Source: a virus
Virus genome (UHGV): UHGV-0141727
Length of the DNA: 64,000 nucleotides
Direction: 5' to 3' (one strand)
Under the pieces are notes generated by a model that saw only the letters and a program-made list of their open reading frames with translations, did not search any database and was not told the origin of the DNA. The translations under genes and the position numbers were made by a program. Positions 6,931 to 52,755 of the stretch are shown here, piece after piece (position 1 is the stretch's first letter; the number at the start of each line of letters is the position of its first letter).

Positions 6931-7113
6931 GTGAAGTATTCAGAGTTCAAACGCTGGTTAATCCAGCAAGGGGCAGAGTTCAGGAAAGCGCCAGGTGGCG
7001 GCAGTCATCAGAAAGTGAACCTGAACGGAAAGCGGTCGGTTTTCCCGGACCACGGTTCAAAGGAAATGCCTGAACCGCTACGCAAGAAAATAATGAAGGA
7101 CCTGGGGCTTTAA
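6931..7113 (+). CDS. hicA: HicA toxin (mRNA interferase)
   Basis: 60-aa ORF MKYSEFKRWL...GGGSHQK; GTG start with AAGGA RBS; followed by hicB. Confidence 0.8.
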   Translation: MKYSEFKRWLIQQGAEFRKAPGGGSHQKVNLNGKRSVFPDHGSKEMPEPLRKKIMKDLGL

Positions 7114-7143: not shown

Positions 7144-7575
7144 ATGTTTAACTATCCGGTAAAACTGGAGCGCGACGACAATACCGGCGCGTATGTCGTA
7201 TCATGCCGCGACCTACCATTGTTTAATTCCGTGGGTGACTCAGTTGAAGAAGCGTTGCTTGAGGCTGGTTATGGATTGGTCGCAGCGGTTGCGATTGAGA
7301 TTGAAGAACGCCGACCTGTTCCCACTGGTAGCGAGCCAAAAGAAGGTGAGTACGTTGTCTCTTTGCCAGTGCTACCAGCAATGAAGGCTGCACTCCACAA
7401 CGCGATGATAGAAACCGGCACACGCAAAGCAGAGTTGGCGCGCAAACTCGGAAAAAATGGAACACAGATTGATCGGCTTCTCGACGTCGAACATTCATCG
7501 AAAGTTGAAACTGTCGAGTTGGCACTGCATCAACTGAATAAAAATATCGCCGTATCTGTCACACCAATGCGGTGA
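7144..7575 (+). CDS. hicB: HicB antitoxin with C-terminal DNA-binding region
   Basis: 143-aa ORF immediately downstream of hicA. Confidence 0.8.
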   Translation: MFNYPVKLERDDNTGAYVVSCRDLPLFNSVGDSVEEALLEAGYGLVAAVAIEIEERRPVPTGSEPKEGEYVVSLPVLPAMKAALHNAMIETGTRKAELARKLGKNGTQIDRLLDVEHSSKVETVELALHQLNKNIAVSVTPMR

Positions 7576-13776: not shown

Positions 13777-16700
13777 TTAATACCCATAAGCAACATACTG
13801 TGCATATATTTTATCAGTGGAGCTACTTTTTACTGTAAAACCAGTGGCAGAGTTGTTGTATGTATAAAGAATTGCATTAACAGCATTCCCGCTATGAGGT
13901 GAAATCACAACTGCCGCACACGACTCAGGAAAAGAAGTCGGAAATTTAACTACGCTTCCTGGAGTAACAGCCGCTATAGTCCCCCACTGCATCATCACCT
14001 TAGTTGATGTATCCTTATGCCATCCATGAATGTTGGCATATGCAGTATTTTTAGCCTGATATTTCGTGTTGAAATTACTATAGTTACCAGGGGTAATCTG
14101 ACCAGCGGCAGATAAATTCCCCATAACCCTTACATGACCATCAGCACGTCCTAATTCTACGCGACCATCACCGCCATCTATCTTTAATGGAGTGTAAACG
14201 ACATCACCATTAACATTTTGCCCAGTGGTTGATATCTGGAAACTATATCCAGTATTAGTTATTAGGAATCCATAGTTATTATTATAAGTTAGGCGTATAG
14301 CATTTTGGCTGCTGGATATAATTTCACCGGTAACAGTACCACCTGTTGTTGGTAACGCACCAACATGACTTGCCGTTAATGTGATATCTGCAGAACCATC
14401 AAAAGCCACGCCACTTATTTTTCTGGCAGTTTTTAACTTTGTAGCTGTAGCTGCATTGCCACTTGTATTTTGATTCCCGGCAATATTAACGCCCGGAAGA
14501 TTGATGTTTGCTGAACCATCAAACGAAACCCCGCCTATTGTGCGTGCTGTTTGCAGTTTTGTGGCAGTTGCAGCATTGCCGGTAGTGCTCTGATTGCCTG
14601 TTTTATTCACGCCCGGCAGGTCGATGTTTGCGGTGCCATTAAATGAAACACCACCAATAGTTCTTGCCGTTTGTAATTTCGTTGCAGACGCCGCGTTTCC
14701 GGTTGTGTTCTGGTTGCCCGTGGTATTTACACCAGGGATGGAATCTTTCGATGTGTAGACCTGCGCCCACTCAGACCAACTAGCTGTATCAGTATCTCGT
14801 CGCGAACGTACATGTACAGGCGCATGAGCACCACTTGTACCGCTCCAACCTATGAACAACTCGCCTTCACCAGCGGCTGTTGCGCCCTTAAGATGAAGCA
14901 CATTCCCGTAAGCAGAAGGATAGCCGTTGTTGTACGCCTCATACATCTGCAATCCAGTGGTAGCACCTTGCGTTGTACTGGTGAGCGCAGTAACACGCCC
15001 TCTGGACGTAATTGTTGGTATCGAAATGTTCGCAGAACCATCAAACTTAACACCGTTGATTGTGCGGGCTGTTTGCAGTTTTGTAGCGGTTGCCGCATTA
15101 CCTGTTGTGTTCTGGTTACCGGCAATGTTCACACCCGGCAGGTTGATATTGGCGCTGCCATCAAATGCCACCCCGCCGATTGTGCGGGCCGTCTGAAGTT
15201 TCGTTGCGGTTGCCGCATTACCGGTTGTGCTCTGATTACCCGTTTTATTCACGCCAGGCAGGTCGATATTAGCACTGCCATCAAATGACACTCCACCGAT
15301 CGTTCGAGCTGTCTTGAGCTTTGTGGCAGTATCGGCGTTCCCGGTCAGCGTACCAGTAATCCCACCGCCAACTTTTACGCCGTTACCGATGGACACCAAC
15401 CCAGTTCTTAAGTTTATAGAAAATGGTCTTAATGGCCCGATGTCACCATTTTCACCCTCCCCTTCATTTGTCGGGATAAGATGAAGATATTCCTCGGATC
15501 TCCTGAAGATAAGGCCAAAGGCCTGGTTAAATATTCGAAGGGCATTTATTGTGCCAATTTTTAGCTGCCCCCCCATTGTGTCGCCAGAACGCTGAACGGC
15601 GTTACCAGCTTGAGAAGCAATATCCGTTAAGCCAAGATCTTCAGGGGTCAGAGTAATATCTGCCGAACCGTCAAATGCCACACCGTTAATCTTTCTGGCT
15701 GTTTTTAATTTCGTCGCAGTATCGGCGTTCCCGGTCAGCGTACCAGTGATCCCCGCGCTGAAAGTCTGGCGTGCACTCCATGTGTTAGCCGTGCTCAACA
15801 GGGGGATTTTTTCACCGCTGGTACCGAGTTCTCTTAAACCAAGGTATTGGATAACAGCCAGAGTGCTTGTTTTAGCCAGAATATCGCGACCGACTGACGT
15901 TAAATCAGTCTGGGCTACAGTGTCTGTTCCGGTAAAGTACGGTAATTTATTTGCCCCCGTCGCCAGGCCAGCGAGCGCGGTTAAGGTTGCGTCGAGAGGC
16001 TGCTTACCTGCAAGGGCATTTGTCATTGTAGTCGCAAAGTTCGGGTCATTGCCCAGTGCTGCGGCAAGCTCATTCAGGGTATCAAGAGCTTCTGGTGATG
16101 AGCCGACCAATGCAGAAATAGCGGCACGAACATAAGCGGTTGTTGCAATCTGAGTGTTGTTCGTACCTTGTGACGCCGTAGGAGCTGTTGGAACCCCCGT
16201 AAATGCCGGGCTTAATAACGGCGCTTTAAGAGCTAACGCATCATTAATCGTCTGGCTAAACTGGGGATCATTGTTTATTGCATCTGCAATTTTTTTCAGC
16301 GTATCCAACGCTGAAGGAGAACCATCAATAAGGGCGGTTATTGCGGCCTGAACAAAGGCAGTGTTTGCGATTTGTGTACTGTTTGTACCTTGTTCCGGAG
16401 TTGGAGATTTAGGTATACCAATAAACTCCGGGCTATCAACCGGAGCTTTTAGTTTGTTTAACGTGCTGATAGCAAGAGGTGTTGCGGCTTTATATTCTTC
16501 GTCACTATCCAAAGCACTGGAAAACTCAACACCAACAGCACGATTAGCACGATATTCAGTGCTAATCATATCTGCGGTAACGGCTTGAGCATTGTCAGGC
16601 ACGATCACGCGGCATAGCTCAATCTGGTTAGATGCTATTTCCTCATCAACGAGAGCAATAATTCTCGCTGCGCTAATATCCGATGAACTATCTACCTGGC

Positions 16701-45540: not shown

Positions 45541-46080
45541 GTGAGTCAGGAAGTTGAAAAGTGGCGAGCATTTGAACACCCTGATGGTGTTATTCGTGAT
45601 TTGTCATTTCTTGACGCTCATCAGGCTGTGTTTGTTCAGCAACAAGAAGGAAAGCAACCGATAGAGTATCGCTTTTGGGTTACGTACTCTTTTCACTGCT
45701 TCACAAAAGACTATGCACACCAGACTGAGGAAGAGAAACTGGCGTTAATGTACCACGCCCCTAAAGAGTCTCGTCCATTTTGTGAGCGTCGCTATAATCT
45801 TGCCAAACTTCACTTAAAAGAGGCAATTCTGTCATTGTCGGAAGGTAAGGTGATCCATGCCGGATACGGAAGCTATGCCGTTATTGAGGTAAATATTGGG
45901 GAGGGTAACAAGGAGTATTATTTTGTTGCGTTTAAGGCTTTCAGGGAAAAGAAAAAGTTGCGGTTACACATCACTAGCGCCTACCCGGTATCAGAAAAAC
46001 CAAATGGCAGGTCAGTGAAGTTTTTCGCAATCGCATACAATCTGTTAAGGAACAAACCGCTTCCTAAGCCACCAAAATAA
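45541..46080 (+). CDS. orphan opposite-strand protein of unknown function
   Basis: 179-aa ORF, GTG start with AAGGAG RBS, own terminator. Confidence 0.4.
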   Translation: MSQEVEKWRAFEHPDGVIRDLSFLDAHQAVFVQQQEGKQPIEYRFWVTYSFHCFTKDYAHQTEEEKLALMYHAPKESRPFCERRYNLAKLHLKEAILSLSEGKVIHAGYGSYAVIEVNIGEGNKEYYFVAFKAFREKKKLRLHITSAYPVSEKPNGRSVKFFAIAYNLLRNKPLPKPPK

Positions 46081-46082
46081 CA

Positions 46083-46104
46083 AAGCCCACCTTAAGGTGG
46101 GCTT
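46083..46104. terminator. hairpin AAGCCCACC/GGTGGGCTT directly after 45541..46080
   Basis: 9-bp stem; T-tract on minus side. Confidence 0.45.
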
Positions 46105-46305
46105 CGCCAGAAATTATTTTCTGGTATTCAGAACGCCATTACCGGACTTTGCCTTGACCAAGTATCACAACTGGTTTGACCTGTTATGATAGCTGGTTGC
46201 GGGATGTCTGAATTTCTTCAGTCTGCTGCATCCTCGAAGGTTTGGTTCAACATGTACCATTCCTTCACCGTCATAATAGTGTACTATTCACGTCCTTGCA
46301 AACAC

Positions 46306-47511
46306 TTATACATTTTTTACGTTGTTCTTCACATACGCCATGAACATCTTTTCGGCTTGTGCTGGTGGTGTTCCTGCCATAACAAGCGCATCAATGAACG
46401 CCTGCTTCTTCAGTGCGAACTGATCAGCAAGGCGTTGCTGAAGTTCCTTGTTTTTCTGCTTCTCCCGTTGCAAAGCTGCTTCTTTTGCCGCTGCCCGTTT
46501 TTTCTGTGCGTCGGATAACTTTCTGGCCCTGGTCAGTTGGTCACGCAGCTTGTCGATCTTACCGTTGTCCTTTGCCAGTTTTGAGCTTAAAGCGGCCTGG
46601 CGTTTCTGATAGAGCTTCCATTCACGTTTAGCTGCCTCAACATTCGTTTTGCTGCTACGGTTTCGATTGAACGCCTTCTCGTCTTCTTTTGTGAAGTGTT
46701 TTGTCGTGCGGCGGCGATCGTCACCAAAGGCAACTTGCTTTGCAGCTTTTTGCAGGGCGCGAGCAATACTCATCTGCCAACTGGCAGACTGTAGTCGTGT
46801 CATTGAGTGGATCACATGTTTACAGGCGACGCCTTGCAGCTTAGGGTTGCGAACTTTTGGATAGGCGTATTCTTTTGGCGGGGCCAGGGCAAAGTTACCC
46901 GCAGTGGCGATGTAGCGATACCAGTATTGATGGCGACCGCAGTCACAGTCGAAAGACACTCGCCCGGCACACAGTGATTTTGTGACTTTCAGGGCTGATT
47001 TATCGTCTTCTGCGATGTCATCGACCATCTGATCCCATTCTTCAAAACGTACCCGGACAATGTGGTGCTGGTGAACGGATATATCGGACGCTTCCACGCG
47101 GATATTAATCACATTGTGACGAAGAGATACGGGCGTAGCTCTTTTGATACCAGAACCGTCGTCTACGGCGTTATTTGCTCGCTTAATATCGATAGCCTGG
47201 CTGGACGCTACCAGTTGTGCGTATGTGATGCCAGCCGTCTTGCTGTCATATTTTTCGCGTGCTTTGCTTCGCAGCTTTTCGAAGCCTTTCAGATCGTCAC
47301 GCGTAAAGAACGTGCCGCCTTTCTTTTTCCCCAGCTTAAGAATGTCTTCGGCTGATTTATTCCTAAGCCTGCCCGGCGTGAGTGTCCTGTGCGCCTGGCG
47401 GCGTTTGCGGTTTTGCTCTTTCCTGATGAGTTCAAATACGCGTGTGAAATCCTTAGAGGACAGACCGTTAGTGATATATCGCCCGTCCTGATTTTTCAGG
47501 AAGTCAGGCAT
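46306..47511 (-). CDS. SWIM-type zinc-finger protein with basic coiled-coil C-terminus
   Basis: 401-aa ORF; CxC...CxH pattern in FDCDCGRHQYW...ACKHV. Confidence 0.35.
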   Translation of the reverse strand: MPDFLKNQDGRYITNGLSSKDFTRVFELIRKEQNRKRRQAHRTLTPGRLRNKSAEDILKLGKKKGGTFFTRDDLKGFEKLRSKAREKYDSKTAGITYAQLVASSQAIDIKRANNAVDDGSGIKRATPVSLRHNVINIRVEASDISVHQHHIVRVRFEEWDQMVDDIAEDDKSALKVTKSLCAGRVSFDCDCGRHQYWYRYIATAGNFALAPPKEYAYPKVRNPKLQGVACKHVIHSMTRLQSASWQMSIARALQKAAKQVAFGDDRRRTTKHFTKEDEKAFNRNRSSKTNVEAAKREWKLYQKRQAALSSKLAKDNGKIDKLRDQLTRARKLSDAQKKRAAAKEAALQREKQKNKELQQRLADQFALKKQAFIDALVMAGTPPAQAEKMFMAYVKNNVKNV

Positions 47512-47833
47512 TTTCTATCTCCGGTGCCGAGCCAGCGTAATCGCGAATCTTGTTTCTTAGCCATGCTGCGTCAGGAAGAGTTAACGTTGTCCCTACCGGC
47601 ATTTCTTCCATTTCTGACTCATGGCCCACCAGCACGCGAAATACCCAGCGCAAATCAGCATTGCCATAGGCGCGATAGGCCGCCAGGTCTGAGCGATAAA
47701 CCTCATCAATTTTTATCGTGTACTGGAAATTATCGGAGTGATACTCCGATACCCGCTTGATCATCTCCTGATGGAATAGTGCGCGCAGCACATCGTCTTC
47801 AATGCATCGATCGTCGAGCCTGCTGTAACTCAT
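47504..47833 (-). CDS. hypothetical protein
   Basis: ORF 109 aa. Confidence 0.3.
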   Translation of the reverse strand: MSYSRLDDRCIEDDVLRALFHQEMIKRVSEYHSDNFQYTIKIDEVYRSDLAAYRAYGNADLRWVFRVLVGHESEMEEMPVGTTLTLPDAAWLRNKIRDYAGSAPEIENA

Positions 47834-47890
47834 AACAGTTCCTCACAGTCATAACCTGTGGGGAACTGTATGCAGGGTGTGAAATGCGGG

Positions 47891-47913
47891 AAAGCAGCGT
47901 CACCTGGCCTGGT
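47891..47913 (-). terminator. hairpin GCGTCACC/GGTGACGC downstream of higA-like gene
   Basis: 8-bp inverted repeat. Confidence 0.3.
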
Positions 47914-47925
47914 GACGCTGTAAAA

Positions 47926-48207
47926 TTATGCGTGGGAAAATAATGGACGGATGTTTGGGCGAGCGGTTTGCGAAGCAACCCAAAGCTCATACTGGGATTG
48001 CATACCGGTCCACATTTCGGCACTGGTTCCAAGAGCGGACTCCAGACGAAGTGCCATATCAGCAGAAATACCTGTTTTTTCGTTCAGAATTCGGGAAAGT
48101 GCCGTGCGAGTAATGCCTAATGCAGCAGCTGCGTCTGTGACTGACATGTCTCCCAAATATTCACGAAGAACCGCGCCTGGATGCGCGGGATTATGCATAC
48201 GACTCAT
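47926..48207 (-). CDS. HigA/VapI-like HTH antitoxin
   Basis: 93-aa [14 protein letters not shown]...DMALRL. Confidence 0.55.
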
Positions 48208-48503
48208 ATGTGGAAAGCAACCCGTTTACCGGTTGGCAATTCAACGTCCAGACTCAACTTTCCACCCATAGCCTCAACGTAACGTTTAAGCGTTGCTACT
48301 TTCAAGTCATTGCCTCGTTGTTCAAGTTTTGTGATGGCTGGTTGACTAATTCCCATCGCATCGGCAACTGTTTTTTGTGATAACTGAAGCTCCTCTCTCA
48401 ACATCTGCAATCCGACTTCCAGAATCATTTCATCAGCCTGCTCTTTGATACGAGCTTGGCTTTCAGGGGATTGCGCAGCAATAACTTCTCTTAGAGTTCT
48501 CAT
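48204..48503 (-). CDS. XRE-type HTH antitoxin-like protein
   Basis: 99-aa ORF with HTH, immediately downstream of RelE/HigB-like gene. Confidence 0.5.
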
Positions 48504-48850
48504 TATTTTTTCTCAAGTTCTGCAAGATGGTTGGAAAATTCGTCGTCTGCAATCCGTATCATTCTTTCGTAGAACTTTTTATCGTTACTCTTATCTCCGG
48601 CGCACAGGATTATGGCTTGCCTTACCGGATCAAATGCGAAGAATGCTCTGATAGGGCGACCAGCGTACTGAATCCGTAACTCCTTCATGTTTTTATGGCG
48701 TGAGCCTTTAACTGTGTCGGCATATGGCCTTGATAATGAAGGGCCATATGTTTCCAGATTGATCAGGTCAACCAGGATTTTTTCTTTTAATGCAGGTTCC
48801 TGTTCCTGGAACCATTCATCAAAAATTTTTCCAAAATAAATTTGCCACAT
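48503..48850 (-). CDS. RelE/HigB-like addiction-module toxin
   Basis: 115-aa ORF; ELRI...GDKS motif pattern; precedes two HTH genes. Confidence 0.5.
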   Translation of the reverse strand: MWQIYFGKIFDEWFQEQEPALKEKILVDLINLETYGPSLSRPYADTVKGSRHKNMKELRIQYAGRPIRAFFAFDPVRQAIILCAGDKSNDKKFYERMIRIADDEFSNHLAELEKK

Positions 48851-48885
48851 AGTTATTCAAAATCCTTTTTAATAAACTACATGTT

Positions 48886-48922
48886 ATAAACTACAGGTTA
48901 TATCATATAACCTGTAGTTTAT
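48886..48922. promoter_or_regulatory. 37-bp perfect palindrome in promoter region of toxin-antitoxin operon (candidate operator)
   Basis: ATAAACTACAGGTTATAT C ATATAACCTGTAGTTTAT. Confidence 0.5.
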
Positions 48923-48955
48923 ATTTTCAAGGCCATTTTTTATTCGATTTAGCAT

Positions 48956-49609
48956 TTAAAGTATCACGGTATCCTCATCAACTTCTTTCCCTGCCAGTGA
49001 CTTTGGCTGGGAGGCTGCTGCTTTAACCTTCTCATGCCCAATAATGGACAGGAACGAGGCCATTATCCCTGCTTTGTTTTCTTTCTCTACCGCTCCTGTC
49101 ATTTGTTTCAGGTAATCCGCGCTGGCAACATTGTGGTATACCGTTGCATAGCAGCACAGAATCATCAGGATGTGCTCTGGTCGGATATCTTGCCAGTTAA
49201 CTCGATAAACCTCTTCACCGTTGCCGTTGTATTCGGTATCGACGATAGAGTCGGGGATCTCAAATGCCCCTTTGTTCTTGTCAGGCAGGGATAGCAGCCT
49301 TTGTAGTTTCAGCTCCCGGTATCTTTCCATGCCGACAATGATCGCCGCTCTGCCGTCGGCGTGCCGTGTTTTTAATGTTACCTGACTGGCACCTGTACCG
49401 GCTGAAATGGTTGGCGTGATTTCGTCAACCAGCACCTTAAATTCACTTTTACGCAGCTCGGCAATTGCTGGTGGAATTTTTCGTTTTTGTTCAATAGCAG
49501 ATGCAGGGAGCGGCTTTACTTTGTCAATTACAAGCGCGCCGTCTTTCAGGACTGCCGTAGCCATCAGCGGCTTGTTAGTCGAAAGGCTGAATATTGCGAT
49601 CTTTTGCAT
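48956..49609 (-). CDS. hypothetical protein
   Basis: ORF 217 aa. Confidence 0.3.
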   Translation of the reverse strand: MQKIAIFSLSTNKPLMATAVLKDGALVIDKVKPLPASAIEQKRKIPPAIAELRKSEFKVLVDEITPTISAGTGASQVTLKTRHADGRAAIIVGMERYRELKLQRLLSLPDKNKGAFEIPDSIVDTEYNGNGEEVYRVNWQDIRPEHILMILCCYATVYHNVASADYLKQMTGAVEKENKAGIMASFLSIIGHEKVKAAASQPKSLAGKEVDEDTVIL

Positions 49610-52459: not shown

Positions 52460-52620
52460 ACTAAGTTAAGGAGCTACCGCGTGAGGTTCCAATCTCAATG
52501 GCGGTAGCACTGACTGGGTTGGAACTACCGGCGTCAAAGGGAACCGGCCTGCCTTTCGGCAGCCCAGCCAGCACTACCATTGATCTCTGAGCTAAACGCT
52601 ACGTATGGCTGTGCGATGGC
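52460..52620 (-). ncRNA. candidate c4-like antisense/leader RNA region upstream of icd (inference only)
   Basis: ORF-free structured region between a terminator and icd; position analogous to P1 c4. Confidence 0.2.
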
Positions 52621-52624
52621 ATGA

Positions 52625-52651
52625 CACAAAAAAAGACGCTTTCGGCGTCTG
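52625..52651 (-). terminator. intrinsic terminator AGACGC/GCGTCT plus T7 on minus strand
   Basis: hairpin immediately followed by TTTTTTTGTG. Confidence 0.55.
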
Positions 52652-52755
52652 TGTCGCCTTTGACATTATCCGGGGTTCCAATCCCGGCACCCGTTTTTCT
52701 AAGGTGCCGTAGAAATATACCCCACGATAATGCCAGGGCGCAACTGTGTGTTTTC

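Follow-up and report, generated by a model that had tools for sequence, protein, structure and literature searches.

We analysed a 64,000-nucleotide stretch of DNA (the window) from the virus genome UHGV-0141727 and found in it a three-gene toxin-antitoxin (TA) operon, carried by a D6-like, P1-type phage-plasmid of Escherichia coli, in which a Gp49-family toxin, an XRE-type antitoxin and a second antitoxin, HigA, are encoded head to tail on the minus strand (Table 1). Judging from sequence, and with a probability of roughly 0.8, a functional, autoregulated Gp49/XRE addiction module has here taken the place of the toxin gene higB of a resident pair and inherited its antitoxin gene, higA. We established the gene families, the predicted fold of the toxin, the junctions, the allelic series at the site, the family of operators and how widespread the allele is. 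The toxin-antitoxin-antitoxin order and the three gene identities, which had been proposed in an earlier note made from the letters alone, are borne out by the positions of the open reading frames and by profile matches. The genes overlap, with the toxin stop and the XRE start sharing TAATG and the XRE stop and the higA start sharing ATGA.

The operon lies between mat and gene 26, an intergenic site of D6-like phage-plasmids for which three allelic states are known. The site is empty in phage D6 and in L004 (PLSDB), it holds a higB-higA pair in L002 (pEC361_3), in L003 and in 15 further PLSDB records, and it holds the three-gene operon in the window. Positions 47400-48208 of the window are 99.4% identical to L002, covering the whole of higA and the hairpin past it. 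Homology to L002 stops at the higA ATG (48205-48207) and restarts at the mat stop codon, at 48956. Between these two points, a 747-bp cassette stands in for higB, for the hig promoter, which contains the TGTGTATACACA palindrome, and for ancestral intergenic DNA that L002 and L004 have kept. Comparison with L003, which is D6-proper-like, gave a different picture of the older allele: the higA/terminator segment (47834-48208) is 96% identical and the adjacent mat and gene 26 are 80-86% identical, which suggests that the higBA cassette itself moved between diverged backbones at the mat/gene 26 site.

The 93-aa protein encoded last in the operon matches the TIGR02607 model antidote_HigA at equivalog level (97.9 bits vs a cutoff of 47.7) and solved HigA/GraA structures (E=2e-13). 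It is 100% identical to the HigA of L002 at the same site, where the partner encoded upstream is a PF05015 HigB-like toxin, and the break between the two alleles falls on the higA start codon. No HigB was detected by tblastn within the window (E>0.7), nor in 17.6 kb of flanks supplied by contigs that match the ends of the window at 99.98-100% identity. The suggestion that this gene may be an orphan antitoxin therefore stood up, and its former partner could be named. A HigB gene directly upstream and a hig promoter/operator are present in the siblings L002 and L003 and absent from the window, where higA also lacks its GAGGA Shine-Dalgarno sequence; because of that loss, its translation would depend on reinitiation past the XRE gene. 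We also scanned the window for a HigA operator resembling the hig palindrome of L002; the outcome was no better than chance, so HigA has no evident DNA target here. The toxin that it matches is found on other elements, with the HigB of L002/L003 present on 388 contigs, and related HigA variants occur on >1,000 contigs, some of them chromosomal (the largest 4.9 Mb).

The stem-loop past higA is common to the higBA allele, since the L002 homology spans it, and is probably a terminator or a stabiliser of the transcript 3' end. In L008, L014, L022, L024 and L026, its 6-nt loop AGGCCA is replaced by the reverse complement TGGCCT (47905, 47910), a small inversion between the hairpin arms. A terminator-like match inside higA (48171-48188) was rejected, as it folds no better than shuffled sequences (z = -1.4).

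The toxin matches the Pfam family Gp49 (PF05973) over residues 12-105 (E=1.3e-21, 76.9 bits vs a cutoff of 23.9). We found 1361 homologs, and PF05973 was present in 120/120 of those listed; the nearest relative among the matches listed is 83% identical in protein. An AlphaFold2 (AF2) model built on 32 homologs reached a predicted local distance difference test score (pLDDT) of 90.1 and a predicted template modelling score (pTM) of 0.81, with the topology beta-alpha-alpha-beta4-alpha. Foldseek comparison of this model with PDB returned E. coli RelE (4fxe_E, TMt 0.85), Vibrio cholerae HigB2 (8a0x and 5ja8), Thermus thermophilus RelE and Mycobacterium tuberculosis HigB1 (7awk, with the best TMq, 0.69). 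A RelE/BECR fold is thus predicted for the 115-aa protein, and this is one of the two properties on which the earlier note had staked its toxin assignment. Members of the Gp49 family are described as ribosome-dependent mRNases encoded toxin-first (PMC11980606), and the toxin of the window is likewise a predicted ribosome-dependent mRNA endonuclease. The toxin-first operon with an adjacent helix-turn-helix (HTH) antitoxin recurs as the same pairing at 80/80 homologous loci.

The XRE protein matches HTH_3/HTH_37 over residues 32-88, leaving a 31-residue N-terminal segment before the HTH through which it may neutralise the toxin. We obtained weak matches to M. tuberculosis HigA3/HigA2 and Streptococcus pneumoniae HigA, and a single-sequence AF2 prediction gave an unusable model (pLDDT 57). 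The protein keeps the family-native C-terminus VAFHI, and its TGA stop codon is formed with the higA ATG. In related loci from other species, an XRE homolog lies directly 3' of the toxin in 80/80 cases and a HigA homolog downstream of XRE in 0/80. In the plasmid homologs, a terminator follows immediately past the XRE gene. The absence of HigA from all 80 homologous modules indicates that it is a retained relic of the earlier occupant and no integral third component.

The sigma-70-like promoter of the operon (TTGAAA-17-TATGAT) fits the consensus at 10/12 positions, and the plasmid homologs L005-L007 have the same TTGAAA -35 hexamer and layout. Its -10 hexamer sits on the centre of a palindrome that also covers the spacer between the two hexamers and the probable start of transcription. 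This palindrome had been described as perfect with arms of 18+1+18; it is perfect, and its true arms are 19+1+19, which makes it the longest perfect inverted repeat of the window (ten shuffles reached arms of 8-11 nt). The additional half-site copy reported with it also exists, although it lies upstream only in plus-strand coordinates and is downstream of the promoter for the operon. We find that the arrangement is better read as a 16-bp operator unit, ATAA-N8-TTAT, that is conserved in the family and present here three times. O1 and O2 mirror each other exactly, with their centres 21 bp apart, and so produce the long palindrome, and O3 is located in the 5' leader, after the palindrome and ahead of the ribosome-binding site. 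The 16-mer unit is absent elsewhere in the window at <=2 mismatches, and the observed count was reached in 0/100 shuffles.

We surveyed 84 family promoters for this unit, including those of 80 toxin loci of other species and of three plasmid homologs. It was detected in 64/84, with a consensus (ATAAGCTnnAGCTTAT) that is itself palindromic. Two units are present in 41 promoters, typically flanking the -10 hexamer, and three units in 3. Equally long mirror pairs (16-19 nt arms) were found in L042, L092/L093, L038 and L105, and these have independent origins. Among the siblings, L022 differs at both 48890 and 48918; this dyad-symmetric double substitution, an A-to-C variant, leaves the palindrome perfect and makes each unit internally symmetric (ATAACCT-N2-AGGTTAT). 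In L020, one of the two positions is changed. These variants suggest that one arm has served as template for correcting the other, or that operator strength is under selection. Further palindrome polymorphism among siblings was seen at 48903 (L009, L011 and L019) and at 48899 (L013).

A role of the palindrome as an RNA hairpin was rejected. The predicted transcription start falls inside the downstream arm and the leader folds no better than shuffles, so the palindrome is a DNA-level feature. The ATAA-N8-TTAT units are predicted binding sites of a dimer of the XRE antitoxin, which is the presumed autorepressor. Experiments on related modules have shown that the antitoxin represses its own operon through promoter-operator binding (PMC5906591), and operator binding has likewise been shown for HigA2 (PMC11006873). 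Candidate palindromic operators overlapping the promoter, a hallmark of autoregulated type II TA operons, are therefore present in the window.

The core of the operon would be a standard reverse-order type II module, in which the gene of the XRE antitoxin comes after that of a RelE-fold Gp49 toxin, an expected ribosome-dependent mRNA cleaver. An XRE dimer would repress its own operon by binding the three 16-bp units, which together extend from the promoter spacer across the -10 hexamer and the start into the leader. The ancestral site would have held higB-higA, as siblings still show, and a single recombination would have swapped everything between the mat stop codon and the ATG of higA for a foreign promoter-toxin-XRE cassette. 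The swap would have set higA under the new promoter, with its translation coupled to the XRE stop codon. We infer that loss of HigA while HigB protein persists would kill the cell. Because removal of the toxin from a toxin-first operon also removes the promoter of the antitoxin, the only recombinants to survive would be those with higA under the incoming promoter. This viability constraint could account for breakpoints that fall on the start codon, in addition to the general tendency of surviving phage mosaics to be joined at gene boundaries. The resulting plasmid could addict its host with the new toxin and, if HigA is made, would be immune to sibling or chromosomal HigB.

We searched for a donor of the cassette and for further carriers. 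In PLSDB, the best DNA match to the cassette has 75% identity; in 5,426 complete E. coli genomes, there was no match; and among GTDB species representatives, identity was <=77% for the toxin and <=88% for XRE; none of these searches yielded a donor. The exact proteins were found in draft assemblies and metagenomes, on 251 (toxin), 266 (XRE) and 246 (HigA) contigs. The three-gene order was present in 30/30 places inspected, on contigs of ~64-137 kb, most of them near 92 kb. Twenty contigs found via the toxin or XRE align without gaps across both junctions (98.6-100%), and 10 contigs found via HigA are 97.9-100% identical on both junction sides. These shared junctions indicate a single origin of the three-gene allele. 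The flanks of the carriers are 98-100% (mat) and 99-100% (gene 26) identical, and the allele marks one backbone sublineage. An alternative in which it swept by recombination across diverged backbones was dropped, since all carriers have closely related flanks. The higA gene is intact at 30/30 loci, and its one variant allele differs by six nucleotide changes, 2 of them non-synonymous and 4 synonymous. Purifying selection would fit this pattern, but the clonality of the carriers makes it weak evidence.

A second TA hot spot is located ~2 kb away, past gene 25, and siblings show two arrangements there. L008 encodes a PF09907 HigB with a 119-aa K-12-type HigA, and L009 encodes a PF05015 HigB, a 112-aa TIGR02607 HigA and the same 119-aa HigA (Table 1). 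Homology between L008 and L009 begins exactly at the ATG of the retained 119-aa antitoxin. With T1 and A1 denoting the resident toxin and antitoxin and T2 and A2 the incoming ones, this locus reads as an independent second case with the same break, and the pattern T1-A1 to T2-A2-A1 is therefore recurrent in the D6-like family. In L009, A2 and A1 are separated by a hairpin and a 56-bp gap.

At the same hot spot, the window itself carries a gene for a 179-aa YjaZ-like "stationary phase growth adaptation protein" (45541-46080), adjoined by a full-length match to the chromosomal small RNA sroH (Rfam RF00372, 113 bits; 46082-46267). Together these look like a captured chromosomal gene-plus-small RNA cassette.

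Several points weigh against the displacement of higB by a functional addiction module that inherited higA. The fold link to RelE, HigB2 and HigB1 depends on a predicted model and comes without a sequence match: the toxin, searched alone or as a 32-sequence profile against all PDB chains, returned nothing even at E up to 10. The search for HigB covered 81.6 kb of a plasmid of ~92 kb. After the loss of its Shine-Dalgarno sequence, higA may be translated weakly. Because the backbone of the carriers is closely related, the intactness of higA may reflect recency and clonal descent instead of selection. At the second locus, a terminator-like hairpin parts A2 from A1, which makes that locus unlike an obligatory operon capture and capture into the operon less clear there. 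Finally, toxicity, neutralisation, repression, HigA expression and competitive benefit are inferred.

What the retained HigA does is a separate matter. It could act as an anti-addiction or competition factor that neutralises the HigB of ancestral-type D6-like plasmids or of chromosomal higBA copies, so that cells lose such elements safely or the phage infects their hosts, while the Gp49 toxin still punishes loss of the plasmid. This reading makes the anti-addiction idea of the earlier note specific; it extends displacement with inheritance and does not exclude it, and we give it rather less than even odds. Plasmid competition (Cooper & Heinemann) and ccd anti-addiction are established and reviewed concepts (PMC7354431, PMC12548467). 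In the present case, the cognate HigB (WP_032323275.1) is identified and circulates at the same site in siblings, the HigA protein is unchanged relative to its HigB-paired copy, the gene is intact at every locus examined, the ATGA coupling places it in an expressed operon, and antitoxin retention happened twice. Against these points, expression of HigA is argued by the ATGA coupling only, its Shine-Dalgarno sequence being lost; the clonality of the carriers leaves intactness with little weight; and the variant higA allele may be a recombination import from higBA plasmids.

The gene may instead be a neutral relic, required, if ever, only while the swap took place and now hitch-hiking toward decay, a proposal that we hold to be slightly less probable than the anti-addiction role. 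Orphan antitoxins are commonly taken as leftovers of degraded modules (PMC7354431). The single origin on a closely related backbone, the 99.4% identity to the higBA sibling, which implies a recent event, and the lost promoter, operator and Shine-Dalgarno sequence all agree with such a relic. It is harder to reconcile with the lack of any frameshift or stop in 30 loci despite up to 1.4% divergence across the locus, with the precise, frame-preserving junction and its translational coupling, and with the repetition of the pattern at the second locus.

The Gp49 family includes one tripartite system, TAC. A true three-component system, with HigA as a second antitoxin or co-regulator of the Gp49 toxin, could point to that precedent, to the HigB1 structure among the fold matches of the toxin and to the three coupled cistrons under one promoter, but it is very improbable, because the homologous modules have no third HTH gene (0/80) and the plasmid homologs terminate past XRE, and further because an identical HigA is the partner of a toxin from another family in a sibling plasmid, the sequence breaks exactly at its ATG and a HigA-type operator was not found in the window.

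A broader proposal is that phage-plasmids repeatedly turn over their addiction modules by antitoxin-capturing displacement (T1-A1 to T2-A2-A1), and that selection favours this route. The swap would be viable only with continued expression of A1, and it would yield a product that out-competes its ancestors. We regard this generalisation as unlikely. If it were true, the product would be immune to the toxin of its ancestors and the ancestors sensitive to its own, and the two D6-like cases with breakpoints at the A1 start codon would be its natural footprints. Theories of plasmid competition and anti-addiction predict displacement by modules that keep immunity to the old toxin, and natural cases in which ancestor and descendant are visible at one site are rare. 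The mat/gene 26 site offers the full series (empty, higBA and Gp49-XRE-higA) with base-exact junctions, a known cognate toxin and ~250 carriers. For annotation, it follows that a toxin-antitoxin-antitoxin triplet can be a displacement scar and is not necessarily a three-component system. The TA module itself is ordinary; its composite architecture and clean natural history are of modest novelty and will not surprise specialists.

The pair in the window shares several features with known Gp49/HTH_37 modules (phage N15 gp49, Tad-Ata, Acinetobacter baumannii HigBA2 and the gp49-HTH pairs of the Tn3 family): the toxin-first order, the Gp49 domain, a RelE fold (predicted for the window) with a long C-terminal helix, an antitoxin of ~100 aa with an N-terminal extension and a C-terminal XRE HTH, and palindromic operators, putative in the window, over the promoter. 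Unlike them, it has a third cistron on the antitoxin stop codon and three operator units vs the usual two. The closest structural analogue is V. cholerae HigB2-HigA2, whose toxin is filed in another Pfam family, PF06296 (PMC11980606). With the HigBA systems of the Rts1/Proteus vulgaris, GraTA and Pseudomonas aeruginosa type (PF05015 and TIGR02607), the window shares a full-length HigA; unlike those systems, it lacks HigB, a hig promoter/operator of the TGTGTATACACA kind and a Shine-Dalgarno sequence of its own.

Orphan or anti-addiction antitoxins such as the chromosomal ccd of Erwinia chrysanthemi, the Bartonella pVbh orphans and T4 Dmd resemble the HigA of the window in being antitoxins without a toxin that could neutralise a foreign one. 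In contrast to these, its carrier is a mobile element in competition with others that encode the cognate toxin, it lies within the operon of the module that displaced this toxin, and the ancestral state is still visible at the site. Phage D6 orf70-72 (annotated as RelE-family toxin, HigA and HigA) has the same T2-A2-A1 order with a break at the A1 ATG; unlike in the window, a PF05015 HigB with a TIGR02607 HigA displaces a PF09907 HigB, and a gap takes the place of the ATGA overlap. The tripartite systems TAC of M. tuberculosis (HigB1-HigA1-SecB), paaR-paaA-parE and omega-epsilon-zeta also have three genes per TA operon. Their third gene is a conserved chaperone or regulator of the same toxin, whereas that of the window is the antitoxin of another system.

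Table 1. Coordinates of the operon, its regulatory elements and neighbours in the window, and of the second locus in sibling sequences (a point marks features without strand)
Feature	Position	Strand	Remarks
Toxin, 115 aa	48503-48850	-	Gp49 family of the RelE/ParE superfamily
XRE/HTH_37 antitoxin, 99 aa	48204-48503	-	cognate antitoxin, presumed autorepressor
HigA antitoxin, 93 aa	47926-48207	-	TIGR02607; probably retained from displaced higBA module
Stem-loop, 5 nt past the higA stop codon	47895-47920	-	-19.4 kcal/mol, z = -5.55
Putative incoming cassette: promoter, operators, toxin, XRE	48209-48955	-	747 bp, from alignment to sibling L002
Sigma-70-like promoter	48902-48930	-	-35 TTGAAA 48930-48925, 17-bp spacer, -10 TATGAT 48907-48902
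Perfect palindrome, 19+1+19	48885-48923	.	holds operator units O1 and O2
Operator unit O1	48907-48922	.	ATAA-N8-TTAT
Operator unit O2	48886-48901	.	ATAA-N8-TTAT, mirror image of O1
Operator unit O3, ATAAACTACATGTTAT	48872-48887	.	one mismatch; 2-bp overlap with O2
mat	48956-49609		stop codon 48956-48958; neighbour of the operon
Baseplate gene 26	47504-47833		other neighbour of the operon
PF09907 HigB and 119-aa K-12-type HigA	L008 7369-8034		HigA matches PDB 5ifg/5ycl at E=2e-8
PF05015 HigB, 112-aa TIGR02607 HigA and the same 119-aa HigA	L009 6571-7699		equals phage D6 orf70-72 (L001 1-1094)

Other TA genes and RNAs were detected in the same plasmid family. A hicA-hicB pair on the plus strand of the window (6931-7113 and 7144-7575) is also present in L123 and absent from the sibling L124, and is a further TA insertion polymorphism in this family. 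Just beyond the edge of the window, the near-identical contig L122 carries a phd-doc pair (15332-15933). We also detected C4 antisense RNA (Rfam RF01695) at two separate loci (71.7 and 77.1 bits; 2475-2560, 2628-2680, 52497-52584 and 52629-52707), one adjoining c4 a1/b1 target sites and the other an isrK-like RNA, which would imply two immunity (immI-type) regions in the window.

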